32,000 nucleotides of DNA, taken from Sinorhizobium meliloti. Lineage in GTDB: Bacteria > Pseudomonadota > Alphaproteobacteria > Rhizobiales > Rhizobiaceae. Position numbers and translations under genes: made by a program. Numbering within the stretch: the first letter of the stretch is position 1; each line of letters begins with the position of its first letter. The notes beneath the pieces were generated by a model. The model was not told where the DNA came from, did not search any database, and saw only the letters and a list, made by a program, of their open reading frames with translations. Below are positions 1,771 to 17,526 of this stretch, one piece after another. The stretch lies in NCBI RefSeq assembly GCF_017876815.1, contig NZ_JAGIOS010000001.1, positions 3,600,001 to 3,632,000 on the forward strand, given 5' to 3'.

Positions 1771-3444
1771 TCACGCGGCTGCCTGGGCACCGCCGCCATA
1801 GAGCGCATCCTTGAAAGGCTGCGGCCCCACCCGGCGATAGGCTTCGAGGAAGGTCTCCGACTTGTCCCGGCGCAAGCCGAGATAGGTATCGACGATCGTC
1901 TCCACCGCGTCGGTCACTCTTTCCGGCTCGAAGCCGCGACCAATGATCTCGCCGATCGATGTATGTTCGTCGCCGGAGCCGCCGAGCGTGATCTGATAGA
2001 GCTCCGCGCCCTTCTTTTCGACGCCCAGAAGACCGATATGGCCGACGTGATGGTGCCCGCAGGCATTGATGCAGCCGGAAATCTTGATCTTGAGCTCGCC
2101 GATTTCGGCCTGCCGCTCGGGCGAGCCGAAACGGTTCGAAATCTCCTGCGCGACCGGAATCGAGCGTGCATTGGCAAGCGCACAGTAGTCGAGCCCCGGA
2201 CAGGCAATGATGTCGGTGATCAGCCCCGCATTGGCAGTGGCGAGGCCGGCGGCGACCAGGGCGCGATAGACCGGCTCGAGGTCGGCAAGCGCCACATGCG
2301 GCAGGATCAGGTTCTGCTCATGGCTGACGCGGATCTCGTCGAAGGCATATTCCTCGGCGATATCGGCGACCGCATCCATCTGTTCGTGGCTCGCGTCGCC
2401 CGGAATGCCGCCGATCGGCTTCAGCGAGATCGTCACCATGCCGTAGTCGGGATGCTTGTGCGGCTGGACGTTCTGGTGCACCCAGCGGGCAAATTCCGGA
2501 GCGGCCTTCTTCCAGCGGGCGAGACTGCCCCAGCCCTCCGTCCGGTTCGGCAGTGTCGCGGGCGCAAAATAGGCAGCGATCGCCTGGATATCCGCGTCCG
2601 GCAGCTTCAGTTCCGTGTCCTTCAGATTGGCGAATTCGAGCTCCACCTGACGGGCCAGTTCCTCGGCACCGGTTTCATGAACCAGTATCTTGATGCGCGC
2701 CTTGTACTTGTTGTCGCGGCGACCATGGAGGTTGTAAACGCGCATGATCGCGGTCGTGTAGGAAAGCAGATCCTCTTCCGGCAGGAAGTCGCGGATCTTC
2801 TTGGCAATCAGCGGCGTGCGGCCCTGCCCGCCGCCGACATAGACGGCAAAGCCAAGCTTGCCATTCTCGTCCTTCTTCAGGTGCAGGCCGATGTCATGCA
2901 CCTGAATGGCGGCGCGGTCGCGCTCGGCGCCGGTCACGGCGATCTTGAACTTGCGCGGCAGGAACGAGAACTCCGGATGGACGCTCGACCATTGCCTGAG
3001 GATTTCGGCATAGGGGCGCGGGTCGGCGACTTCGTCAGCCGCGGCACCGGCGAAATGGTCCGCCGTCACGTTGCGAATGCAGTTGCCGGAGGTCTGCAGC
3101 GCGTGCATCTCCACGCTTGCCAGTTCCTGAAGGATATCAGGCGTGTCGGAAAGGCGCGGCCAGTTGTACTGGATGTTCTGGCGGGTCGTGAAATGTCCGT
3201 AGCCGCGGTCATATTTGCGGGCGATATGGGCGAGCATCCGCATTTGCCGGCTCGAGAGCGTACCATAGGGAATGGCGACGCGGAGCATATAGGCATGGAG
3301 CTGCAGATAGACGCCGTTCATCAGGCGCAGCGGCTTGAACGCATCCTCCGCGAGTTCACCGGACAGTCGCCGCTGGACCTGGTCGCGGAACTGCTCGACG
3401 CGTGCGGAAACGAAGGCGTGGTCGAATTCGTCGTAACGATACAT
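1771..3444 (-). CDS. cysI: assimilatory sulfite (nitrite/sulfite family) reductase hemoprotein, siroheme/4Fe-4S
   Basis: 557-aa ORF starting at an ATG. Cluster-ligand motifs CPGLDYCALA and SGCINACGHHH are present, with the repeated NIR_SIR ferredoxin-like halves. The gene sits between DUF2849 and DUF934. Confidence 0.9.
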   Translation of the reverse strand: MYRYDEFDHAFVSARVEQFRDQVQRRLSGELAEDAFKPLRLMNGVYLQLHAYMLRVAIPYGTLSSRQMRMLAHIARKYDRGYGHFTTRQNIQYNWPRLSDTPDILQELASVEMHALQTSGNCIRNVTADHFAGAAADEVADPRPYAEILRQWSSVHPEFSFLPRKFKIAVTGAERDRAAIQVHDIGLHLKKDENGKLGFAVYVGGGQGRTPLIAKKIRDFLPEEDLLSYTTAIMRVYNLHGRRDNKYKARIKILVHETGAEELARQVELEFANLKDTELKLPDADIQAIAAYFAPATLPNRTEGWGSLARWKKAAPEFARWVHQNVQPHKHPDYGMVTISLKPIGGIPGDASHEQMDAVADIAEEYAFDEIRVSHEQNLILPHVALADLEPVYRALVAAGLATANAGLITDIIACPGLDYCALANARSIPVAQEISNRFGSPERQAEIGELKIKISGCINACGHHHVGHIGLLGVEKKGAELYQITLGGSGDEHTSIGEIIGRGFEPERVTDAVETIVDTYLGLRRDKSETFLEAYRRVGPQPFKDALYGGGAQAAA

Positions 3445-3459
3445 GGCTTCTCAGGTCCC

Positions 3460-3777
3460 TCAGGCAGCAACATTCTTCGGGCCCGCAAGCCCGCTGTATC
3501 CAGGAGCGTAGGGGATCGACGGCCCTTCGGCACGGATCCGCTCACGCATGCGCAACGGCCGCAGCGTACCGTCTACCTCCTCGACGTCGATAACGTTGAC
3601 GTCCACCACTTTATTCTCGTCGAACGAGCGCTTTCCGGTCGCCTCCAGGGCCGCGACGGCCTCCGCATGGCGAGCGACGAAGGCATCCTGCAACGACTCC
3701 ACCCAATTGCCGGAAGCGTCGAGCCAGACGGAGATGCCATCCGCCAGACGGTTTGCCGTCAGAACCTTTTCCACCAT
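3460..3777 (-). CDS. DUF2849-family small protein (sulfite reductase cluster)
   Basis: ATG at 3777 (MVEKVLTANRLADG...) lies 10 nt after the cysG stop and is preceded by gagga. Product is 105 aa. The upstream part of the 144-aa ORF overlaps cysG and is Arg/Pro-rich junk. Confidence 0.7.
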   Translation of the reverse strand: MVEKVLTANRLADGISVWLDASGNWVESLQDAFVARHAEAVAALEATGKRSFDENKVVDVNVIDVEEVDGTLRPLRMRERIRAEGPSIPYAPGYSGLAGPKNVAA

Positions 3778-3787
3778 CGCGTCGTCC

Positions 3788-5245
3788 TCAATTCCAGATC
3801 TGTTCGGTGCGTTTCGCCGAAACTTTGCTGGCACCGCTATACTTGGTGCGGCCGGCCGCCAGCGGCTCGGACCGTTCGAAATTCGCGCCCGCAACCGCTT
3901 CGCCGATGATCACCATGACCGGCCCGTCCAGTTCCGTGCGGGCCTCGAGATCCGGCAGATCGCGGAGCGTTCCGTGCAGGAGACGGCGCTCGGCACGGCT
4001 CGCATTCTCGATCACCGCGACGGTCGTGTCCTGCGGCAGACCGGCCTGCATGAGCCGCGAGGCGACGGAGGCCGCAACGGTGCGGCCCATATAGACGGCA
4101 ATCGTCGCGCCGGAAACCGCCAGTCGCGCCCAATCGGGAAGAACGCTGCCTGTCAGATCGTGCCCCGTCGTGAAAACCAGCGACGATGCCACGCCGCGCA
4201 GCGTCAGCGGCAGTTCGAAATCGGCGGCCGCGGCAAAGGCCGATGTGATCCCCGGCACCACCTCGTAGCTGATGCCGGCTTCACGCAGTGCCGCCATTTC
4301 CTCGCCTGCCCGGCCGTAGACCAGAGGGTCGCCGGACTTCAGCCGGACGACGCGCTTGCCTTCGCCGGCAAGCTTCACCAGCAACTGATTGATCTCGTCC
4401 TGCGACTTGGTATGGCAGCCCTTGCGCTTGCCGACCGAAAGCCGCTCGGCGTCGCGGCGGCCCATGTCGACGATCGCTTGCGGCACCAGCGCATCATAAA
4501 CGATGGCATCCGCTTCCATCATCACGCGCTGCGCCCGGAGCGTCAGCAGGTCTTCGGCGCCCGGTCCGGCGCCGACCAGCCACACATGGCCGGCCACGCC
4601 CCCCGCGGCATCCAGAAGCCTCGAGGCCTCGCGGCGCGCGGATGCAAGATCGCCGAGCGCTACTTGATCCGCCACAGGGCCCGAGAAGAAGCGGCGCCAG
4701 AAGACACGCCGAGCGACGCCGCGCGGCACGAGGCGCTCGACGGCGTCGCGATAGTTCGCAGCCAAAGAGGCAACGATACCCAAGGACGGCGACAGCAATT
4801 GATCGATCTGCGCGCGGATCATCTGCGCCAGAACCGGCCCTGCCCCTTCGGTGCCGATCGCAACTGCGACGGGCGCCCGGTTGACGAGTGCCGGCGTGAG
4901 GAAATCGCAATAGTCCGGCTGATCCACGGCATTTGCGGGGATTTTCCGCTCGCGCGCCGCAGTCACGACAACGCGGTCAAGCGCCGCATCGCCGGTTGCG
5001 GCAAAGACGAGGACGGAGCCTTCGACCTGATGAGCCCCAAAGGGTTCGCGCACGGTCTCGATATTGTTGGCATCCAGAAAAGCATCGAATGCCGGTTCCG
5101 GGCGATCCGCATAGGCGACGATGCGCGCCTCGGTGTTCAGCAGCAACCGTAACTTGGCGAAGGCCTCGTCCCCATTGCCGAACACCGCCACGCTTTTCTG
5201 CGCGACGCGAAAGAATGCCGGAAAGACGGACAATTTCTGCGACAT
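3788..5245 (-). CDS. cysG: siroheme synthase (precorrin-2 dehydrogenase/ferrochelatase plus uroporphyrinogen-III C-methyltransferase)
   Basis: 485 aa. N-terminal Rossmann VAVFGNGDEA. C-terminal SUMT motifs VWLVGAGPGAEDLLTLRA and RLKSGDPLVYGRAGEE. Confidence 0.9.
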   Translation of the reverse strand: MSQKLSVFPAFFRVAQKSVAVFGNGDEAFAKLRLLLNTEARIVAYADRPEPAFDAFLDANNIETVREPFGAHQVEGSVLVFAATGDAALDRVVVTAARERKIPANAVDQPDYCDFLTPALVNRAPVAVAIGTEGAGPVLAQMIRAQIDQLLSPSLGIVASLAANYRDAVERLVPRGVARRVFWRRFFSGPVADQVALGDLASARREASRLLDAAGGVAGHVWLVGAGPGAEDLLTLRAQRVMMEADAIVYDALVPQAIVDMGRRDAERLSVGKRKGCHTKSQDEINQLLVKLAGEGKRVVRLKSGDPLVYGRAGEEMAALREAGISYEVVPGITSAFAAAADFELPLTLRGVASSLVFTTGHDLTGSVLPDWARLAVSGATIAVYMGRTVAASVASRLMQAGLPQDTTVAVIENASRAERRLLHGTLRDLPDLEARTELDGPVMVIIGEAVAGANFERSEPLAAGRTKYSGASKVSAKRTEQIWN

Positions 5246-6059: not shown

Positions 6060-6893
6060 ATGGAAGCTTCCCGCGACATTCAACGCCTGCTCGACATCAT
6101 GGCCGCGCTCCGCGATCCGGAGACGGGCTGCCCCTGGGATATCGTGCAGACCTTCGAGACGATCCGGCCTTATACGATCGAAGAGGCCTATGAGGTCGCC
6201 GACGCGATCGAGCGTCATGATATGGACGACCTGTGCGACGAACTCGGCGACCTTTTGCTGCAGGTGGTCTTCCACGCACGCATGGCCGAGGAGGCCGGCG
6301 CGTTTTCCTTCGGTGACGTCGTCGAAGCCATCACGCGCAAGATGATCCGCCGCCATCCGCATGTCTTCGCCCGCTCCGACGCCGACACCGCCGAGGCGGT
6401 GAAGCTGCAATGGGAAGAGATCAAGCAGGCCGAGAAGGCCGACCGGCGGCAACGGCGCCTGCAGCGCGGCGTGTCGCAAGAGGAGCATGCTGGCCATCTC
6501 GGCTCGATCCAACGCAGCTTCCCGGCGCTGGTCGAGGCGCTGAAGCTGCAGGAACGGGCGGCAAAGGTCGGCTTCGACTGGTCCGAGCCTGAGCCGATCC
6601 TCGACAAGGTCGAGGAGGAAATCGGCGAGCTGCGGCAGGCACTTAAAGACGGTGACCTCGGGAAGGTCGCGGACGAGCTCGGCGACCTGATCTTCGCGCT
6701 CGTCAATATCGGCCGCCATGTCGGCACCGATCCGGAAATGGCGCTGCGCGGCACCAATACCAAGTTCCGGCGCCGCTTCGGCCACATCGAGAAGGAACTG
6801 GAAGCCGGAGGCGAAACGCTCGATGCGGCGTCGCTGGAGCGCATGGAAGAACTCTGGCAGGCGGCGAAGGCTATCGAAAGGCAGCTGACGTAG
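6060..6893 (+). CDS. mazG: nucleoside triphosphate pyrophosphohydrolase MazG (tandem MazG domains)
   Basis: 277 aa. Motifs: GCPWD, EEAYEVADAIE in domain 1, EEIGELRQA...ELGDLIFALVN in domain 2. Confidence 0.9.
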   Translation: MEASRDIQRLLDIMAALRDPETGCPWDIVQTFETIRPYTIEEAYEVADAIERHDMDDLCDELGDLLLQVVFHARMAEEAGAFSFGDVVEAITRKMIRRHPHVFARSDADTAEAVKLQWEEIKQAEKADRRQRRLQRGVSQEEHAGHLGSIQRSFPALVEALKLQERAAKVGFDWSEPEPILDKVEEEIGELRQALKDGDLGKVADELGDLIFALVNIGRHVGTDPEMALRGTNTKFRRRFGHIEKELEAGGETLDAASLERMEELWQAAKAIERQLT

Positions 6894-6920: not shown

Positions 6921-8071
6921 CTATTCCTCATCCCTGCCCGTCAAGGAATCCAGCCGGGCGGAATCCTTGGGCTGAAAAGACTCACCCGCGCCGCAGACGC
7001 GGCGCTGCTGGATCCCTGTGACGAGCACAGGGATGAGGGTGGAACGGGTGAGGTCCCTCGGAATACTTCTCATAGGCCGTGGGAAATTAAGGAGATGGCG
7101 CGCACGTCCTTCGAGCGAAGATTGCCGTAGCGCCCGTGCATCCCCGCCTCCCTCATTCCTGTGCCTGTCACAGGAATCCAGCCAGGCCAAGTCATTGGGC
7201 TGGAAAGACTCTTCCGCGCCGCAGACGCGGCGCTGCTGGATCCCTGTGACGAGCACAGGGATGAGGGGAGAGAGGGTCCCGATCCCTCGGAATAGTTCTC
7301 ATAGGTGCGCGGATATCGAGGAGATGGCGCGCAGTCCCCAAACGAGGTTGCGGCAGCGCCCGTGCATCCCCGCCTCCCTCATTCCTGTACCTGTCACAGG
7401 AATCCAGCCAGACCAAGTCCTTGGGCTGGAAAGACTCTTCCGCGCCGCAGACGCGGCGCTGCTCTCATCCCTGTGACGAGCACAGGGATGAGGGTGGAGC
7501 GGGTGCGGTCCTTCGGAATACTTCTCGTAGGCCGTGGGATATTAATGAGATGGCGCGCATGTCCTTCGGGCGAAGGTTACCGTAACGCCCGTGCATCCCC
7601 GCCTCCTCATTCCCGTGCTCGTCACAGGGATGAGGGGAGAGAGGGTCCCGGTCCCTCGGAATAGTTCTCATAGGTGCGCGGATATCGAGGAGATGGCGCG
7701 CAGTCCCCAAACGAGGTTGCGGGAGCGCCCGTGCTTCCCCGCCTCCCTCATTCCTGTGCTCGTCACAGGAATCCAGCCAGACCAAGTCCTTGGGCTGAAA
7801 AGACTCACCCGCGCCGCAGACGCGGCGCTGCTCTCATCCCTGTGACGAGCACAGGGATGAGGGGAGAGAGGGTCCGGTCCCTCGGAATACTTCTCATAGG
7901 CCGTGCGGAAGGAGATGGCGCGCAGTCCCCAAACGAGGTTGCGGCAGCGCCCGTGCATCCCCGCCCCCCTCATTCCTGTGCTCGTCACAGGAATCCAGCC
8001 AGACCAAGTCCTTGGGCTGGAAAGACTCAGCCGCGCCGCAGACGCAGCGCTGCTCTCATCCCTGTGACGAG
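6921..8071. repeat. BIME-like intergenic mosaic repeat array, left part (modules Y0-X1-Y1-X2-Y2-X3-X4-Y4-X5-Y5)
   Basis: Hairpin P1 atccctgtg-ACGAG-cacagggat at 7002, 7240, 7467, 7836 and 8058 (split by the IS). Hairpin P2 attcctgtg-CTCGT-cacaggaat at 7155, 7381, 7749 and 7972. Hybrid hairpin at 7608. X-module blocks cctcggaata.ttctcatagg, gagatggcgcgca and gcccgtgcatccccgcctccctc recur at about 7025, 7263, 7490, 7633 and 7861. Unit periods are 238, 227 and 222 bp. Confidence 0.9.
8067..8071. repeat. target-site duplication ACGAG (left copy)
   Basis: ACGAG lies immediately outside IRL and is identical to 9337-9341. It equals the loop of hairpin P1. Confidence 0.85.
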
Positions 8072-9336
8072 TGTTTAGCCCGGGGACATAACTGACGGGT
8101 GTTCGGGGAGATGGCTGACACGTCATACTGGCATGGATTTGGCTTCGAAGGGGGTATTCCATGCCGTGGCGAGAGGTATCGACGATGGGAGAGCGGCGGG
8201 AGTTTGTGCGACTTGCGCTTGAGGAGGGTGTGAACCGGCGGGAATTGTGCCGGCGGTTCGGGATCAGCCCGGATATCGGTTATAAATGGCTGGCGCGGTG
8301 GGAAGCCGGCGACCGCGAGTTGGCGGATCGCTCACGGCGCCCGCATATAAGTCCGATGCGTTGCAACGAAGCGGTAGAGACCGAGGTGCTTGGGGTGCGC
8401 GATGCGCATCCGGCATGGGGGGCGCGCAAAATTGTGGGCTATCTGGAACGGCAGGGAACCCACCCGCCGGCGGTTTCGACCGTTCATGCCATCCTCAAGC
8501 GCCATGATCGGATCGTAGCACCGCCGGGCGGCGCGCCGGCGTTGCAGCGCTTCGAGAAGGAGGCGCCGAACCAGCTCTGGCAAATGGATTTCAAGGGCTG
8601 GGTGCAATTGGCCGACGCCACGCTCTGCCACCCGTTGACGGTGATCGATGACCATTCCCGCTTCGTGCCTTGTCTCATGGCCTGCGCCGATCAGCGAGGC
8701 GCGACCGTACGCGGCCATCTGGAGCGGACATTCCGGCGCTACGGGCTGCCGGACGCCATGTTCGTGGATAATGGCGCGCCATGGGGCGATCCGTCAGGCG
8801 AGGGCTGGACCGGCCTCGGCGTATGGCTTCTGAAGCTCGGCGTCGCCCTACTGCACAGTCGCCCCTACCATCCGCAGAGCCGTGGCAAGAATGAACGCTT
8901 CCATCGCACACTCAAGGCCGAGGTGTTCGCCTTTGACCGTTTCAGGGATCTTGCTGCCGTTCAGCGCGCCTTCGATGCCTGGCGCGAGCTTTACAATTTC
9001 GAGCGCCCGCATGGGGCACTCGATCATGACGTGCCGGCCAGCCGCTACCACCCCAGTCCGCGCGCCATGCCGGATCGCCTGCCCGAGCCCGTCTATGACG
9101 AGGGCGAGATCGTGCGCAAGGTTTCCGCCACCAAAGCCTATGTCAGCTTCAAAGGCCGGCTATGGAAAGTTCCCAAAGCTTTCTGCGGAGAACGCCTCGC
9201 CATCCGCCCGCTCGACCGCGACGGCCACTATGGCGCTTTCTTCGGTGCCCATCACATCGCAACAATCAACTTGACCAACAAGCAATCCGTCAGTGATGTA
9301 TCCGAACAGGTGTCCGCCATGTCCCCGGGCTAAACA
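8072..9336 (+). mobile_element. IS481-family insertion sequence (1265 bp, single DDE transposase ORF)
   Basis: Perfect 18-bp terminal inverted repeats tgtttagcccggggacat (8072-8089) and atgtccccgggctaaaca (9319-9336) with TGT ends. The single transposase ORF has its stop codon (9331-9333) inside IRR. The element is flanked by a 5-bp direct repeat. Confidence 0.85.
8161..9333 (+). CDS. IS481-family DDE transposase (N-terminal HTH plus rve integrase core)
   Basis: 390 aa. HTH-like RRELCRRFGISPDIGYKWLARW. Catalytic-region motifs WQMDFKG, VIDDHSR, FVDNGAPW and HPQSRGKNERFHRTLK. An alternative start exists at M9 (8185). Confidence 0.85.
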   Translation: MPWREVSTMGERREFVRLALEEGVNRRELCRRFGISPDIGYKWLARWEAGDRELADRSRRPHISPMRCNEAVETEVLGVRDAHPAWGARKIVGYLERQGTHPPAVSTVHAILKRHDRIVAPPGGAPALQRFEKEAPNQLWQMDFKGWVQLADATLCHPLTVIDDHSRFVPCLMACADQRGATVRGHLERTFRRYGLPDAMFVDNGAPWGDPSGEGWTGLGVWLLKLGVALLHSRPYHPQSRGKNERFHRTLKAEVFAFDRFRDLAAVQRAFDAWRELYNFERPHGALDHDVPASRYHPSPRAMPDRLPEPVYDEGEIVRKVSATKAYVSFKGRLWKVPKAFCGERLAIRPLDRDGHYGAFFGAHHIATINLTNKQSVSDVSEQVSAMSPG

Positions 9337-9341
9337 ACGAG
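9337..9341. repeat. target-site duplication ACGAG (right copy)
   Basis: Lies immediately outside IRR. It is followed by cacagggatgagg, the right arm of the split P1 hairpin. Confidence 0.85.
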
Positions 9342-9640
9342 CACAGGGATGAGGGGAGAGAGGGTCCCGGTCCCTCGGAATACTTCTCATGGGCCGTGCG
9401 GAAGGAGATGGCGCGCAGTCCCCAAACGAGGTTGCGGGAGCGCCCGTGCATCCCCGCCTCCCTCATTCCTGTGCTCGTCACAGGAATCCAGCCAGACCAA
9501 GTCAGTGGGCTGGAAAGACTCTCCCGCGCCGCAGACGCAGCGCTGCTCTCATCCCTGTGACGAGCACAGGGATGAGGGTGGAGAGGGTGCGGTCCACTCT
9601 TATAACCTGTGCGGAAAGTCAGGAAATGGCGCAACACTCC
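9337..9640. repeat. BIME-like mosaic repeat array, right part (X6-Y6-truncated X7)
   Basis: Continues the same modules: X6 from about 9351, P2 at 9465-9487, Y6, P1 at 9551-9573, then a diverged, truncated Xa-type module ending a few nt before the hflX stop (9647). Confidence 0.85.
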
Positions 9641-9646
9641 TGGCTG

Positions 9647-11044
9647 CTACCAATCCTCTTCGACGGCCTTCGGGCCGTTGCCCAGCCGCCTCTCGAGCTC
9701 CGTGGCCTCTCCCTCCGTCAGACGCAGGTCAAGGCTCACGCGTCCATCCTCGAGGTCTTCGCGGCCATCGACGATCGCATGCTGGTAGACCCAAGGCAGC
9801 AACTGCAGCTGATCGAGACCCAGAACGACGGTGCACTCGGTCATGACGCCCGAAAGACGCCGGCCTATTTCAGTGAGAAGATCGTCGACACCTTCGCCGG
9901 TCATGGCCGAAACGGCGACCGTGTTGTCGGCGCTCGCGGCCTTCTTCACCAGCGCTTCGCGCACTTCCGGCTCGACCTTGTCGATCTTGTTCCAGACCTC
10001 GACAATGCGCTCGGCACCCTCCTTCTCGTCGATGCCGAGATCGGCCAGGATGCGCAGCACGTCGCTTGCCTGGGCCTGATTGTCCGGATCGGACAGGTCG
10101 CGCACATGCAGAACCAGGTCGGCCTCGAGTACCTCTTCCAGCGTCGCCCGGAAGGCGGCGACCAGATGCGTCGGCAGATCGGAAATGAAGCCGACGGTGT
10201 CGGAGAGGATGACCATACGCCCATGCGGCAGTTTCAGCCGCCTCAGCGTCGGATCCAGCGTCGCGAAGAGCATGTCTTCGGCGAGCACGCCGGCCCCGGT
10301 CATCCGGTTGAAGAGCGTCGATTTGCCCGCGTTCGTATAGCCTACGAGCGCGACGATCGGATGCGGCACCTTCTTGCGCTTCGACCGGTGAAGCTGGCGC
10401 GTGCGCCGCACCTGCTCCAACTCGCGCTCCAGCTTGACGATCCTGTCCTGCAGCAGCCGGCGGTCGGCCTCGATCTGCGTTTCGCCGGGCCCGCCCATGA
10501 AACCCGCGCCGCCACGCTGCCGTTCGAGGTGCGTCCAGCTGCGAACCAGGCGGCCCTTCTGATAATTGAGATGTGCGAGATCGACCTGCAGCGTGCCCTC
10601 CCTGGTGGAGGCACGCCGGCCGAAGATTTCCAGAATGAGGCCGGTGCGGTCGATGACCTTGGCGTTCCATTCCTTCTCGAGATTGCGCTGCTGGACAGGC
10701 GTCAGCGGGTGATCGACGATCACGAGCCCCGCATCCTTCTCGCTCAGGACGTGACCGATCTCCTCGATCTTGCCGGTGCCGAGCAGCGTGCCCGGTTTTG
10801 GCTGGGCGACGGAAACGATCATGCCGTGAACGACGTCCAGGTCGATGGCGAGCGCCAGGCCCGTCGCCTCCTCCAGCCGGCTTTCGTCCGAACGCGTAGC
10901 GGGCTGCGCAACGATGTCGGCAGAAGCCTTCCCGGTCTTTTTCAGGATCGGAACGACGACGACGGCACGCGAATCATCGCGGAGCCTCTCGAGCTCCGGA
11001 ATGATCGACGACGATTTTGAATCACGCTTGGTAATGTTCCTCAC
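9647..11044 (-). CDS. hflX: GTPase HflX
   Basis: G motifs GYTNAGKSTLFN, DTVGF and NKID, plus the HflX N-terminal domain. The ORF starts at GTG 11044, 6 nt after the hfq stop. No in-frame ATG occurs for about 70 codons, so the exact start is uncertain. Confidence 0.85.
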   Translation of the reverse strand: MRNITKRDSKSSSIIPELERLRDDSRAVVVVPILKKTGKASADIVAQPATRSDESRLEEATGLALAIDLDVVHGMIVSVAQPKPGTLLGTGKIEEIGHVLSEKDAGLVIVDHPLTPVQQRNLEKEWNAKVIDRTGLILEIFGRRASTREGTLQVDLAHLNYQKGRLVRSWTHLERQRGGAGFMGGPGETQIEADRRLLQDRIVKLERELEQVRRTRQLHRSKRKKVPHPIVALVGYTNAGKSTLFNRMTGAGVLAEDMLFATLDPTLRRLKLPHGRMVILSDTVGFISDLPTHLVAAFRATLEEVLEADLVLHVRDLSDPDNQAQASDVLRILADLGIDEKEGAERIVEVWNKIDKVEPEVREALVKKAASADNTVAVSAMTGEGVDDLLTEIGRRLSGVMTECTVVLGLDQLQLLPWVYQHAIVDGREDLEDGRVSLDLRLTEGEATELERRLGNGPKAVEEDW

Positions 11045-11050
11045 ATCCCG

Positions 11051-11293
11051 TCAGGAGGCAGCTTCCTCATTCTCGAACATCTGCAACGGCTGGCCCGGCA
11101 TGATCGTCGAGATGGCGTGCTTGTAGACGAGCTGAGAATGACCGTCGCGGCGCAACAGCACACAGAAATTGTCAAACGATGTTACGACACCCGTCAGCTT
11201 GACGCCGTTGATGAGGAATATGGTCAAAGAAATCTTTTGCTTGCGGACCGTGTTGAGAAAGAGATCCTGCAAGTTTTGAGAACGTTCCGCCAT
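11051..11293 (-). CDS. hfq: RNA chaperone Hfq
   Basis: 80 aa. Sm1/Sm2 core [40 protein letters not shown]...[11 protein letters not shown]. Confidence 0.97.
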
Positions 11294-13699: not shown

Positions 13700-15064
13700 T
13701 CACACGCCCAACGACTTCAGCTTGCGATGAAGGGCGGAGCGCTCCATTCCGACGAATTCGGCGGTGCGCGAGATATTGCCGCCGAAGCGATTGATCTGGG
13801 CGATCAGATAATCGCGTTCGAACATCTCGCGAGCCTCCCGCAGCGGCAGGGTCATGATGTGCTGATCGCCCTGCGCCGAGATCTTCGGCAGGGTGTCCCC
13901 AACCTCGTTCGGCAGCATGTCGGCGGTGATCGGCGTATCGGGACCGTCGCTGCGCGCGAGGATCATCAGGCGCTCGATGTTGTTGCGCAGTTGGCGGATA
14001 TTGCCGGGCCAATCATGCGCCTGCAGTACGGCCAGCGCATCCTCGCCGATCTTGCGGGGACGGATGCCGGCCTGTTCGCTTACCTGTCGCATGAACATGT
14101 CGACCAGGAAAGGGATGTCCTCGCGCCGCTCCGCAAGAGCGGGAACGCGCACCGGAATGACGGCGAGCCGGTGATACAGGTCCTCGCGGAACAGGCCCTC
14201 GGTGATCATGTTCTCGAGATTGTAGGCGGTCGAGGAGATGATGCGGACATCGACCTTGACGCGCTTGGAGCCGCCGACCCGCTCGAACTGCTGGTCGACG
14301 AGGACGCGCAGGATCTTGTTCTGCGTTTCGCGCGGCATTTCGCCGACCTCGTCCAGGTAGAGGATGCCCCCGTGGGCCTCCTCGAGTGCACCCGTTCGAC
14401 GCGGCTGCCCCGTCGTTCCTTCGGTACCGAAAAGCGCGATCTCCATTCTGTCGGGCGTGATCGCAGCCGCATTGAGAGCCACGAAAGGACCGTTGGCACG
14501 CGCGGACTTGCGATGGATCATCCGCGCGACGAGTTCCTTGCCGGAGCCGGACGGTCCCTGGATCATGATACGGCTGTTGGTGGGCGCCACTTTCTCGATC
14601 ATCTGGCGCAGTTGCGACACGGCAACGGAGGTTCCGATCAGTTCCACCGGATCGCCCGACTTCCGTCTCAGCTCTGAGTTTTCCCGCTTGAGCTTGGAAT
14701 TCTCGAGCGCCCGCTCGGCGATCAGGATCAGCCGGTCGGCCTTGAACGGCTTCTCGATGAAATCATAGGCTCCGCGCTTGATCGCGGAAACGGCGGTTTC
14801 GATGTTGCCGTGACCTGAGATCATCACCACCGGCAAATCGGGGTGCCGGTTCTTGATCTCGTCGAGCAGTGCCAGGCCGTCGAGCTTGCTTCCCTGCATC
14901 CAAATGTCCAGGAAGATCAGGCGCGGCACACGGTCGTTGATCGCCGCGAGAGCGCTCTCGCTGTCGAAAGCGGTCCGCGTTTCATGGCCCTCGTCCGAAA
15001 GGATTCCCGAGACGATCTCGCGAATATCCTCCTCGTCATCCACAACCAGAATATCAGCCGCCAT
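13700..15064 (-). CDS. ntrX: response regulator NtrX (receiver plus AAA+ plus Fis-type HTH)
   Basis: 454 aa. Receiver ILVVDDEEDIR...FLDIWM. Walker A GPSGSGKE. C-terminal HTH ISRTAEFVGMERSALHRKLK. ATG overlaps the end of ntrY by 11 nt. The GAFTGA loop is absent (see findings). Confidence 0.9.
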   Translation of the reverse strand: MAADILVVDDEEDIREIVSGILSDEGHETRTAFDSESALAAINDRVPRLIFLDIWMQGSKLDGLALLDEIKNRHPDLPVVMISGHGNIETAVSAIKRGAYDFIEKPFKADRLILIAERALENSKLKRENSELRRKSGDPVELIGTSVAVSQLRQMIEKVAPTNSRIMIQGPSGSGKELVARMIHRKSARANGPFVALNAAAITPDRMEIALFGTEGTTGQPRRTGALEEAHGGILYLDEVGEMPRETQNKILRVLVDQQFERVGGSKRVKVDVRIISSTAYNLENMITEGLFREDLYHRLAVIPVRVPALAERREDIPFLVDMFMRQVSEQAGIRPRKIGEDALAVLQAHDWPGNIRQLRNNIERLMILARSDGPDTPITADMLPNEVGDTLPKISAQGDQHIMTLPLREAREMFERDYLIAQINRFGGNISRTAEFVGMERSALHRKLKSLGV

Positions 15065-17369
15065 TGGTATTACCCTTATCCTTCAAATTATCTTCGCCCC
15101 CGGTCTCGCCGGCGGGCGGCAGAACCACCCGGATCATCGCCCCGGCGCCACCGTCGAAGTCCGGCGGTGCGTCGTGCAGTTCCAGTTGCCCGCCGTGGTC
15201 CTCTATGATCTTCTTGACGATAGCGAGGCCGAGACCGGTGCCCTTATCCCGCATCGTCATGTACGGCTCCAGAATTCGGTGCCGGTTCTCGGTCGGAAGC
15301 CCCTTGCCGTTGTCGATGACGTCGACCACGAAGCGGCCGGTGGTATCATCGCGACGGGATCGGATGACGACTGTGGGCGCGCCTCGTGACGTTCCCGCGG
15401 GCACGGCTTCGATCGCCTCCACCGCGTTCTTGACGAGATTGCCGAATGCCTGACCCAGCATGCGGCCGTCGAACTGCCCCTCGAGCGGTTCGTCGCCGAA
15501 ATCGCGGACGAAGTTGATGTGGCTGTTGCCCATCTCGCGCAGGAATACGGCGTCCTTCAGGATCGCCCGCAGGTCGGACTTCTCCTTCGTGGGCTTCGGC
15601 ATCCGCGCGAAGGCGGAGAATTCGTCGACCATCCGGCCGATGTCCTCGACCTGGCGCACGATCGTTTCGGTGCACTGGTCGAAGACCGCACGGTCCTCCT
15701 GATCGATCTGCTTGCCGTAGCGGCGTTTCAGCCTCTCGGCCGAGAGCTGGATCGGCGTCAGCGGGTTCTTGATCTCGTGTGCGATGCGGCGAGCGACGTC
15801 CGCCCAGGCGGTGGAGCGCTGCGCGATTACCAGATCCGTGATGTCGTCGACGGTGATGACATAGGAGCCATGCGATTCGTCGCCCTCCTCTCGCGTCACC
15901 TGAACATTCATCGTGCGCTCGGTGCCGCCGCGCATGATATTGATCTGCTTGCGGTAATCGTTGCGGTAGCGGCTCTCGGCCTCGACCAGAACCGCTTCGA
16001 TTTCCGGGGCCACGTCGCTGAGATTCGCTCCGATGAGCTCCGGCGCCGCCTTCTTGAGCATCCCTTCCGAAGACGGATTGAAGATGGTGATGCGGCGATC
16101 TCTGCCGACGCCGATGACTGCCGCCGTTACGCCGGAGAGCACTGCCTCGATGAAGCGGCGGCGTTGGTCGACCTCGTCCTTCGCCACCAGGATCTGATCC
16201 TGCTGGGTCCGAATTTCGCTCACCATCTTGTTGAACGTGCGCGACAGGTTGCCGACGTCGCCGTCGACGGCGCGCACGGGAACGACGACGTCGAGATTGC
16301 CGGAAGCGACGCTGTCGGCGGCGCCGATCAGCTGCCGGATCGGCCGGACGATGCGGTCGGCGACCGCAATGGCCGTCCAGATCGCCGCCAGCAGCACGAT
16401 CAGGGCAAAACCGATGTAAAGGACGCCGAAGGCGATCTGCAGGGAGGTCCGCCCGGCCTCGAGCGTCTTGTATTCCGCAGTGTTCTCTTCCATCAGCCGC
16501 ATCGATCGCATGACTTCCGGATCGACGTTTCGGACGGTGTAAAGATAGGTGCCCGGAATGTTTTCGAGCGGAATGACGGCTCCCACCAGATTGGTCACGC
16601 CCGGGGGGATAAGCGTCGGCTGACCGGCAATGGTGCTCTTCAGTGCGTCCTGCGGGATCGCCGGCAGCGGACGATCGGTCGAAATATTGGCCTGGAGTAT
16701 GGCGCTGCCGTCAGCGCGCACGAGGAATGCGCCGAGCATGCCGCGCCCCCTCGCCTGCCGTGTCATCAGCTCGACGAAGCCGGTACGGTCGAGGCTATAG
16801 AGCTGGCGATTGCGCTCCAGGTCGTTGGCCATCGACACCGTCTGACCCTGAAGGTAGCTGGCATTCTCGAGGACGTAGGCCTGCGCGACGTTCAGGGAGG
16901 AACGGACGATCGCCTGCGTACGCAGCGAGAACCAGCGGTCGAGGCCGACATCGAGGGTGATGCTGGCGAAGATCGCGACGAGGATCGCCGGCGTGATCGC
17001 GACGATCGAGAAGAGCGCGACGATGCGCACATGCAGGCGCGCTGCGGCTCTTCCCTTGCTGCGCGCCCTGAGCAGTCTGAAGATCTCGCGAGCGATGAGA
17101 TAGATCAGGCCCACGACGAAGAGGCCGTTGATGCCGGCACAGGCGATCACGATGTTTCTCTCGGGCCGGATCGGGGTCAGACCGAGGAGAACGAGCAGCG
17201 ACAAGGTGGCGCAGATCAGGGCACCGGTGGCGAGCATAAGCCCCGGCAAGGCAAAGGAGGCTCGCCGATCCTGGGCAGCAGTGACTCCGTCCTCCGTGCC
17301 CAATGGCAAGGCCATTCCATCCACCATGAAAAGTGCTACCCCCAACCGGCGTACCGACGACACCGGCAT
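15054..17369 (-). CDS. ntrY: sensor histidine kinase NtrY (TM, HAMP, PAS, HisKA, HATPase)
   Basis: H-box HEIKNPLTPIQLSAERL and G-box GTGLGLAIVKKIIEDHGG, with N-terminal hydrophobic segments. The start is uncertain: the ORF opens at TTG 17432, and in-frame ATGs lie at 17369, 17327 and 17315. The last is preceded by ggtggatgga. Confidence 0.8.
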   Translation of the reverse strand: MPVSSVRRLGVALFMVDGMALPLGTEDGVTAAQDRRASFALPGLMLATGALICATLSLLVLLGLTPIRPERNIVIACAGINGLFVVGLIYLIAREIFRLLRARSKGRAAARLHVRIVALFSIVAITPAILVAIFASITLDVGLDRWFSLRTQAIVRSSLNVAQAYVLENASYLQGQTVSMANDLERNRQLYSLDRTGFVELMTRQARGRGMLGAFLVRADGSAILQANISTDRPLPAIPQDALKSTIAGQPTLIPPGVTNLVGAVIPLENIPGTYLYTVRNVDPEVMRSMRLMEENTAEYKTLEAGRTSLQIAFGVLYIGFALIVLLAAIWTAIAVADRIVRPIRQLIGAADSVASGNLDVVVPVRAVDGDVGNLSRTFNKMVSEIRTQQDQILVAKDEVDQRRRFIEAVLSGVTAAVIGVGRDRRITIFNPSSEGMLKKAAPELIGANLSDVAPEIEAVLVEAESRYRNDYRKQINIMRGGTERTMNVQVTREEGDESHGSYVITVDDITDLVIAQRSTAWADVARRIAHEIKNPLTPIQLSAERLKRRYGKQIDQEDRAVFDQCTETIVRQVEDIGRMVDEFSAFARMPKPTKEKSDLRAILKDAVFLREMGNSHINFVRDFGDEPLEGQFDGRMLGQAFGNLVKNAVEAIEAVPAGTSRGAPTVVIRSRRDDTTGRFVVDVIDNGKGLPTENRHRILEPYMTMRDKGTGLGLAIVKKIIEDHGGQLELHDAPPDFDGGAGAMIRVVLPPAGETGGEDNLKDKGNTNGG

Positions 17370-17526
17370 ACGCCTGCGTTCCGGACCGAGACATTGAACC
17401 TTAAAGCGCCGCGTCTCCTTTCGGATACGCAAAGCTCCCCGCCCGCACCCGTCTGATCGACCGGCTGCGACCGCGCGCCGGCGAATCGACGCTTATGCGA
17501 GGTTCAAGCAACGCATTGTGGCGAAA

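Follow-up and report, generated by a model that had tools for sequence, protein, structure and literature searches.

Repeat architecture between mazG and hflX

The window, that is, the whole 32-kb stretch of Sinorhizobium meliloti DNA analysed here, carries mazG and hflX in convergent orientation, and the gap between them is occupied by a mosaic of short repeats and one insertion sequence (IS) (Table 1). An earlier note, made from the DNA letters alone, had described this gap as non-coding apart from the IS and as a BIME-like array, in which a palindromic unit of alternating orientation separates two spacer modules, X and Y. Every element of the note was recovered by the pattern scan and repeat finders, displaced by a few bases at most. 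Of the ORFs in the gap, just the IS transposase at 8161-9333 (Pfam rve/LZ_Tnp_IS481) is a real gene; the remaining ORFs differ in reading frame from copy to copy, and tblastn found no Ssn or other protein remnant in the window. The repeat content of the gap is about 1.4 kb.

Scanning of both strands of the whole window with the hairpin pattern ATYCCTGTGCTCGTCACAGGRAT, allowing up to three mismatches, gave 11 matches, all within 7012-9573; the rest of the window had none, nor did 100 shuffles. These copies lie in the P1 orientation (7012, 7240, 7467, 7836 and 9551), in the P2 orientation (7155, 7381, 7750, 7972 and 9465) or as a hybrid (7609). Together with a P1 copy interrupted by the IS (halves 8058-8071 and 9337-9350) and a degenerate P2 at 6926-6948, the region 6926-9646 holds 11 intact, one split and one degenerate copy of the 23-nt hairpin, against a chance expectation of 0. 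In the earlier list of P1 and P2 copies '7002' should be 7012, and the degenerate P2 was overlooked. Along the array the hairpin alternates in orientation and separates six Y modules, six full X modules (7035, 7263, 7490, 7632, 7859 and 9351) and a truncated seventh X. The six Y copies with stems of their own are as in the note, and the last of its seven X copies is a truncated X-left. Tandem Repeats Finder gave periods of 226 and 222, and the repeat search recovered the same families, with an inverted repeat that extends past the hairpin by about 17 nt on the X side and 7 nt on the Y side.

Table 1. Features of the mazG-hflX gap and its neighbours (window coordinates).
Feature	Position	Strand	Description
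mazG	6060..6893	+	Pfam MazG, E = 6.5e-42; stop codon 32 nt before first array element
Doublet R0	6926..7034	.	Degenerate P2 6926-6948, Y 6949-7011, P1 7012-7034
X module Xa1	7035..7154	-	Interior-deleted ssnA cassette; retains stop codon and last 4 codons (TCATAGGCCGTG) and the gene's upstream region
Doublet R1	7155..7262	.	P2 7155-7177, Y, P1 7240-7262
X module Xb1	7263..7380	-	Repeat and module comparison
Doublet R2	7381..7489	.	P2 7381-7403, Y, P1 7467-7489
X module Xa2	7490..7608	-	Module comparison
Hybrid hairpin	7609..7631	.	Doublet minus its Y; P2-Y62-P1 here in other IS-bearing strains
X module Xb2	7632..7749	-	Module comparison
Doublet R4	7750..7858	.	109 bp; as ssDNA one long hairpin, -43 kcal/mol, z = -8.3
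X module Xc1	7859..7971	-	95-96% identity to X modules adjoining ssnA at rnd-Rdx
Doublet R5, left part	7972..8071	.	P2 7972-7994, Y, left P1 half 8058-8071 up to loop ACGAG
IS481-family IS	8072..9336	+	1265 bp; inverted ends TGTTTAGCCCGGGGAC...GTCCCCGGGCTAAACA; transposase 8161-9333; sits in 5-nt hairpin loop
Right half of split P1	9337..9350	.	ACGAG 9337-9341 is the 5-bp target-site duplication of 8067-8071
X module Xc2	9351..9464	-	Module comparison
Doublet R6	9465..9573	.	P2 9465-9487, Y, P1 9551-9573
Truncated X-left, terminal	9574..9646	-	Abuts hflX stop codon; unchanged in 12/12 strains
hflX	9647..11044	-	Right neighbour of the gap; profile search
hfq	11051-11293		Beyond hflX

The hairpin has a 9-bp stem and a 5-nt loop and folds as DNA with -8 to -9 kcal/mol (z = -4 to -5). 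Each Y module forms two stem-loops (z = -3.2), while X is unstructured. The oriented unit is 37 nt long (CCTCAT-9 bp stem-5 nt loop-stem-ATCCAGC), and two inverted units around Y make up a 109-bp doublet, P2-Y-P1.

The array is real and strain-variable: the number of X units ranges from 2 to 7 among 12 strains, ten of which were retrieved by their HflX sequence and have identical HflX. The hybrid lacking Y at 7609 is common to the window and one compared strain, and five compared strains keep the full doublet. One strain (L176) has an IS110-family element at the end of the array next to hflX. Contigs assembled from short reads tend to be very short when they carry ssnA.

Insertion sequence in the hairpin loop

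The IS in the array has 16-nt inverted ends, a 5-bp duplication and the Pfam domains rve, rve_3 and LZ_Tnp_IS481. Elements of this IS481-family type sit in the hairpin loop, which is duplicated, at all five independent sites (the window and four other loci). The element is an independent parasite with the loop as its specific insertion site. IS1397 and ISKpn1, which belong to the IS3 family, have the loops of BIME palindromic units as their targets. The loop of a palindromic unit is targeted in both cases, but the IS family, the repeat and the host are different.

Dispersal of the hairpin and of the doublet

Exact copies of the 23-mer were found in more than 120 stretches from Rhizobium, Agrobacterium, Sinorhizobium, Neorhizobium and others (Rhizobiaceae and Phyllobacteriaceae). 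On pSymB of strain 1021 the repeat has 17 places, and on one chromosome 40 or more. Elsewhere the hairpin is mostly arranged as P2 followed by P1 with a spacing of 84-86 or 101-107 nt, and the flanks GCTGGAT and ATGAGGG are kept in 134 copies from other genomes. The doublet P2-Y-P1 is the genome-dispersed form of the hairpin across Rhizobiaceae. On the other hand, X gave only one record by BLAST, was missing from 120 hairpin-bearing loci of other species and, within S. meliloti and its relatives, was found solely in arrays associated with ssnA, so that X as an independent dispersed repeat family was rejected. The dispersed family proposed earlier therefore holds for the hairpin and Y, not for X.

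Ssn nucleases and their hairpins

The Ssn family was described in 2025 as nucleases of about 95 aa with a GIY-YIG domain, which cut single-stranded DNA (Chenal 2025, PMC11893778). These enzymes bind their hairpin only as ssDNA and in one orientation and cut just upstream of it, and they do not act on RNA (PMC11893778). "Ssn-related motifs" (SRM; NTS/dRS3 of Neisseria) flank ssnA genes, the motif being found beside 71% of Ssn homologues, and the Neisseria homologue was demonstrated to cleave its own hairpin (PMC11893778).

The type-A Ssn of S. meliloti (Q92SU8 in strain 1021) is a 96-aa single-domain GIY-YIG protein with PF01541 as its only Pfam domain, and its identity to the N. gonorrhoeae SsnA homologue is 55-57% (57% with E = 8e-25). 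A homologue of N. meningitidis SsnA was taken to be a single-domain GIY-YIG protein of about 94 aa with tblastn E < 1e-10 and the catalytic residues Y6, Y17 and E64. All three residues are present in the S. meliloti protein, Y6 being conserved wherever the sequence includes the N-terminus. Among loci picked by ssnA homology alone, ssnA is flanked by this hairpin or by a taxon-specific hairpin of the same frame in S. kostiense, S. fredii, the R. leguminosarum group, Agrobacterium genomosp. 13, A. vaccinii, Rhizobium sp. CIAT894, Shinella, Azospirillum, Sphingobium and N. gonorrhoeae. A single flank of the gene carries the hairpins in two cases, the R. leguminosarum group and Rhizobium sp. K1/93. 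Across these variants 5/9 stem pairs change with pairing always kept, and the TC at positions 4-5 before the palindrome and the C directly after it are invariant. S. meliloti has two Ssn paralogues, type A (Q92SU8) and type B (Q92Q42), each with a hairpin of its own.

The published degenerate SRM pattern, HGTCWYN(0-2)YYVSBRHN(0-5)WNVSBRGN(0-2)RNCYNB, matched 0/12 window hairpins and gave 8 matches at a Neisseria control locus. In particular, the window hairpin carries CCTCAT and not CGTCAT; the motifs of CIAT894, Shinella, Azospirillum and Sphingobium do match. The pattern is a search heuristic and does not define the family.

An ssnA cassette in the array

In Ak57 and other S. meliloti strains, an intact ssnA occupies the first X slot of the mazG-hflX array. 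The left part of X and the ssnA cassette's 3' end share 80-90% identity, including TCA-TAR-GCC-GTG (z = 5-17), and the right part matches the region upstream of ssnA at 35-37/50 positions (z = 3.2-4.7). On this alignment X is an ssnA cassette minus its interior: the region upstream of the gene and the last four codons with their stop codon have been retained. An array of the same modules (cassette, doublets and Xc) lies at the rnd-Rdx locus, where ssnA resides in most strains. The identical protein P0136 is encoded at mazG-hflX or at rnd-Rdx according to the strain, and Ak57 has no ssnA at rnd-Rdx. Sinorhizobium sp. K101 carries an ssnA block at a third site, at which Ak57 has a solo hairpin. 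In Ak57, at the rnd-Rdx locus and in K101, S. kostiense and S. fredii, inverted hairpins stand on both sides of ssnA with their CCTCAT (5') side facing the gene, like CGTCAT in the Neisseria locus. The type-B ssn locus likewise has a truncated gene copy in tandem.

Discussion

Our results make it likely that the mazG-hflX gap is a NIME-like mosaic array whose hairpin repeat is the partner of S. meliloti type-A Ssn. Judged from sequence, the dispersed DNA hairpin is probably the target of this small ssDNA nuclease, and homology and genomic association point to its cleavage by S. meliloti SsnA. We regard the array as a further example of the recently discovered Ssn system and not as a new kind of element.

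Among known systems, the neisserial NIME/dRS3-NTS system, not the E. coli BIME, comes closest. In both systems a small single-domain GIY-YIG gene is bracketed by inverted oriented hairpins, and many intergenic copies form 50-150-bp modules bounded by inverted hairpins, in Neisseria as dRS3-bounded NIMEs (PMC11893778). The motif frame (C/G)TCAT-stem-loop-stem-ATC(C/T)AG, with the invariant C after the palindrome, is common to both, whereas the stem sequence is different here, the flank is CCTCAT instead of CGTCAT and the published SRM pattern misses the hairpin. Also in contrast to Neisseria, one module class here can be traced to a decayed ssnA cassette, and the enzyme-hairpin pairing is a predicted one. 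S. meliloti is not known to be naturally transformable, and thus the transformation-limiting role in Neisseria may not apply here.

The architecture also resembles the REP/BIME and REPIN systems with RAYT of E. coli and Pseudomonas: palindromic units alternate in orientation between defined spacers, inverted doublets form long hairpins (the fold of our doublet is like that of a REPIN, a doublet of REP hairpins known from other bacteria), the enzyme gene is present once and has its own repeats on either side, and some IS target the repeats. The sequences have no relation to each other. It is nevertheless very improbable that the hairpins are classical REPs whose mobility depends on a RAYT (Y1 HUH transposase) gene at another place in the genome, with the GIY-YIG gene being incidental. 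A RAYT-like gene was found neither in the window nor in about 180 loci, the gene bracketed by hairpins is an Ssn-type GIY-YIG gene in every taxon sampled, the hairpin sequence changes along with the protein lineage, and the Neisseria homologue cuts its hairpin (PMC11893778). These results suggest that the partner enzyme is a GIY-YIG Ssn nuclease rather than a RAYT. The array could alternatively be a purely local tandem duplication with a common repeat inside, just recombinogenic junk with no enzyme partner, as the 2 to 7 copies among near-identical strains, the lack of structure in X and the restriction of X to S. meliloti and close relatives might suggest. This is improbable, since two or three unlinked loci share this module set, with ssnA included or adjacent every time, X bears recognizable ends of the ssnA cassette, and a corresponding pattern, a truncated tandem gene copy, is seen at the type-B ssn locus.

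The note had also proposed a 3' mRNA stabiliser or an sRNA source. As an RNA-level element, the hairpins would be 3' stabilisers or terminators of the convergent mazG and hflX-hfq transcripts or a source of sRNAs. The array does lie between two convergent 3' ends, such repeats were reported to be transcribed in S. meliloti (PMC3738161, PMC2873474), and two 66-67-nt units of the gap are sRNA-prediction hits in strain 1021. On the other hand, no Rfam family was found at gathering thresholds (at E <= 1 only chance microRNA-precursor matches), scans gave terminator-like sites at chance level and no promoter-like site, no T runs follow the hairpins, X is unstructured, and Ssn enzymes are inactive on RNA (PMC11893778). 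We consider this explanation improbable as an alternative, though such a function at the mazG and hflX 3' ends could coexist with the Ssn explanation. The note also found the array reminiscent of RIME elements. RIME1 and RIME2, reportedly defined by Osteras in 1995 at the chvI-chvG spacer of S. meliloti, are likewise intergenic palindromic repeats of about 108 bp in the same genomes, similar to the array repeat in size (108-109 bp) and taxonomic range. However, their sequences are unrelated: the chvI-chvG spacer (positions 3224-3657 of compared locus L148) has no copy of our hairpin, and its palindromes belong to a different, far commoner family (4445 places in 440 plasmid records), which leaves hardly any chance that the array repeat is RIME1/RIME2. 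Identity of X with Sm-2/Sm-3 is also unlikely, as the annotated Sm-2/Sm-3 are 270-460 bp long and lie at other chromosomal positions.

Under the Ssn explanation, the stretch between two doublets would be a cassette slot, which contains intact ssnA in some strains, and X would be the slot cassette after near-total loss of the reading frame. The array may grow and shrink through unequal homologous recombination between the 109-bp doublets, and one doublet in the window may have collapsed into the single hybrid hairpin. The single-copy ssnA would relocate between the mazG-hflX array and its rnd-Rdx sister; alternatively, plain RecA-dependent recombination, not Ssn activity, may drive this movement. 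By extension from the Neisseria enzyme, when the region becomes single-stranded (conjugal entry, replication or repair), the CCTCAT...ATCCAG strand of each hairpin would be bound by SsnA, which is predicted to cut a few nt 5' of the hairpin, within the conserved X ends. Likely effects of such cuts would be that recombination is limited or redirected and that local rearrangement is promoted. More tentatively, and with the balance somewhat against it, the Ssn/hairpin system might be mobile or propagate itself, have non-autonomous derivatives and offer, in the hairpin loop, a landing site on which the IS481-family element has specialised. The spacer modules (X, perhaps also the RS units of neisserial NIMEs) would then be decayed ssn cassettes, and ssnA would relocate among hairpin-marked arrays by a homing-like or gene-conversion process, aided by its own cuts at the cassette borders.

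Finally, the role of Ssn is known in Neisseria alone, where it limits natural transformation (PMC11893778), and S. meliloti with its two paralogues offers a tractable model for its role outside Neisseria. Strains differ in where, and possibly whether, ssnA occupies the two sister arrays, and this variable placement provides a ready comparison for Ssn effects on recombination, conjugal DNA entry and repeat dynamics. The published motif pattern overlooks a major hairpin type of Rhizobiaceae. The array accounts for the long hypervariable gap beside hfq-hflX, a source of sRNA candidates, and X hints at the origin of spacer modules in mosaic arrays of this type.

The hairpin array between mazG and hflX

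The interval between mazG and hflX is built from a 23-nt hairpin in two orientations (P1 and P2), a spacer of ~62 bp (Y) and a module of ~110-130 bp (X). The hairpin has 11 intact copies, all within 7012-9573 and none elsewhere in the 32 kb. The earlier note had described a BIME-like mosaic with seven X and six Y modules. Both counts were reproduced, that of X including a truncated copy at 9574-9646, and the BIME-like description is largely correct as to form. None of the hairpins arose in shuffled sequences. Tandem Repeats Finder gave periods of 226 and 222. The inverted repeat reaches beyond the hairpin, by 7 nt on the Y side (GCTGGAT) and ~17 nt on the X side (ATGAGGGTGGAGCGGGTGC). Folded as single-stranded DNA, the P2-Y-P1 doublet forms a single long hairpin (-43 kcal/mol, z = -8.3) and Y forms two stem-loops; no significant structure was detected in X by DNA folding.

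MazG, HflX, Hfq and an IS481-type transposase were confirmed in the window by Pfam, and the gene order in S. meliloti chromosomes with an identical HflX is the same (nifR3-ntrBC-ntrYX-trkA-dat-hfq-hflX, gap, mazG). Separately, in one strain (comparison locus L001, 3675-5991, corresponding to ~15054-17432 of the window) ntrY was called as two genes (219 and 561 aa) as against a single one of 771 aa; the two-gene call may reflect a frameshift or an assembly error.

Features in and beside the mazG-hflX gap
Feature	Position	Strand	Length	Remarks
Hairpin copy 13, degenerate	6926-6948			
Hairpin copy 12, split by the IS	8058-8071 / 9337-9350			
IS481-family element	8072-9336		1265 bp	16-nt inverted ends; 5-nt loop duplicated
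hflX	9647-11044	minus		Pfam HflX; identical protein in many S. meliloti chromosomes

In 12 S. meliloti strains, including 10 retrieved by HflX sequence in which HflX is identical, the layout of the gap is constant: a doublet, n repeats of X plus doublet, and a truncated X. The value of n is 2 (one strain), 3 with a gene (one), 4 (two), 6 with the IS (several) or 7 (one). The hybrid hairpin at 7609-7631 is a doublet without Y, where other IS-bearing strains have a full doublet. Such copy-number variation, together with the Y-less doublet, is what unequal recombination between 109-bp units would be expected to produce.

Dispersal of the doublet

The exact 23-mer occurs in more than 120 stretches among the matches listed, from Rhizobium, Agrobacterium, Sinorhizobium, Neorhizobium, Pararhizobium, Shinella, Aliihoeflea, Phyllobacterium and others. 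The unit conserved in these foreign loci is ~37 nt long (GCTGGAT-hairpin-ATGAGGG), and conservation beyond the hairpin extends into Y and not into X. Since P2 followed by P1 after 84-86 or 101-107 nt is the commonest layout there, the dispersed element is the P2-Y-P1 doublet of ~109 bp, which occupies 17 sites on pSymB (strain 1021) and at least 40 sites on a chromosome. X matched a single record, that of a S. meliloti chromosome stored with the plasmids, and did not occur in any of the 120 foreign hairpin-bearing loci searched for it. In the plasmid collection, PLSDB CP090106.1 is a 3.72-Mb S. meliloti chromosome mislabelled 'plasmid pSymB', and the chromosomes of Sinorhizobium sp. K101, C101 and M103 are likewise misfiled.

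X modules and the ssnA gene

Strain Ak57 carries an intact 96-aa GIY-YIG nuclease gene (ssnA) in its first X slot, on the minus strand between P1 and P2. The left end of X matches the 3' end of this gene cassette at 80-90% identity (z = 5-17), stop codon and final four codons included, and the truncated module adjoining hflX is a further such left end. The right end resembles the region upstream of the Ak57 gene (z = 2.7-4.0) and of the gene copy at a sister array between the ribonuclease D and SelT/Rdx genes (rnd-Rdx; 35-37 of 50 positions matched, z = 3.2-4.7). Judged from these matches at both ends, X is an ssnA cassette with its interior deleted.

S. meliloti has two Ssn paralogues, type A (Q92SU8 in strain 1021) and type B (Q92Q42). 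Type B (94 aa) is located between gltA and lpxB and is accompanied by a hairpin of its own, cgtcatCCTCGGGcttgaCCCGAGGatcca (Ak57, locus L157, 1130-2000), and by a 5'-truncated tandem copy (273 nt, 88.6% identical) limited to the gene's 3' end. Type A lies at rnd-Rdx in most strains, in an array that shares its modules with that of the window (cassette, doublets, the X subtype Xc and often the same IS). Strains differ in whether an identical protein (P0136) is encoded at rnd-Rdx or in the mazG-hflX gap; Ak57 has the type-A gene only in the gap, and its rnd-Rdx array lacks the cassette. Sinorhizobium sp. K101 has a third site with a 99%-identical cassette, doublets and X (835 bp), whose Ak57 counterpart is a solo hairpin. 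The presence of the type-A gene at different hairpin-marked sites according to strain shows that it moves between such sites, for which homologous recombination may suffice or the nuclease may be required.

Among loci picked by protein homology alone, irrespective of the hairpin, inverted hairpins stand on both sides of the gene in S. kostiense and S. fredii, in differing neighbourhoods, and only downstream in the Rhizobium leguminosarum group, in a conserved one. Two A. vaccinii strains (L146, L147) have identical ssn neighbours (leuA and a metallophosphoesterase gene) and opposite cassette orientations; ssn lies inside the doublet, between P2 and P1, in one strain, and a complete doublet lies downstream in the other. 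In Agrobacterium genomosp. 13, doublets with the same Y core and a different stem (GCCGGA/TCCGGC) flank the gene. Homologues in Rhizobium sp. CIAT894, Shinella, Azospirillum, Sphingobium and N. gonorrhoeae are bracketed by taxon-specific hairpins with a common frame, (C)GTCAT-stem-loop-stem-ATCCA(G), the Neisseria version being the dRS3/NTS repeat. When eight variants were aligned by hand, 5 of the 9 stem pairs differed and all remained complementary; TC directly before the palindrome (positions 4-5) and C directly after it are invariant.

Insertion sequences at the hairpin

The same IS481-family transposase was found at five independent sites, namely next to rpsA, in this gap, in the rnd-ssnA array, at a pSymB site and at dctM-dctP (strain 1021). 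All five insertions are in the loop of this hairpin family with the loop duplicated (window; comparison loci L165, L167, L169, L170-L174). The 1265-bp element appears specific for this repeat, resembling IS1397 in its specificity for BIMEs. The hflX end of the array is adjoined by an IS110-family transposase gene in one S. meliloti strain (L176, 171-1430). In Neisseria, dRS3 is a target of IS110-like elements.

Identity of the element

The resemblance to RIME elements suggested in the earlier note was not borne out. RIME1/RIME2 identity is excluded by the chvI-chvG spacer, which holds no copy of the hairpin and whose palindromes belong to another, commoner family, presumably the true RIME1/RIME2. 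These large palindromes (L148, 3275-3510) occur at 4445 places in 440 Rhizobium/Sinorhizobium plasmid records, far more commonly than the hairpin studied here. Regarding an RNA-level role of the array, two units of the gap were returned by sRNA prediction in strain 1021, whose copy of the transposase is SMc01050, but Rfam searches and promoter/terminator scans gave no support.

The array element rather belongs to the Ssn/SRM kind described by Chenal et al. (2025; PMC11893778). In that study, Ssn proteins are single-domain GIY-YIG proteins of ~94 aa that bind their hairpin in one orientation, exclusively when it is single-stranded DNA, and cleave a few nucleotides upstream of it, and 'Ssn-related motifs' (SRM) flank 71% of the homologues, on both sides in 42%. 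The N. meningitidis enzyme reduces transformation by motif-bearing DNA, and the authors themselves likened NTS-ssnA-NTS to RAYT/REP/BIME; neither Sinorhizobium nor Rhizobium appears in their main text. The S. meliloti protein shares 55-57% identity with the N. gonorrhoeae homologue and retains Y6, Y17 and E64, the residues mutated in that study; we infer that it cleaves this hairpin. The published degenerate pattern detected none of the hairpins of the window, as against eight in a Neisseria control locus, and therefore this type (CCTCAT, stem TCCTGTG) is a variant outside the pattern.

New here are this S. meliloti hairpin variant, a decayed ssnA cassette as the source of X, the relocation of ssnA between sister arrays, and a loop-specific IS.
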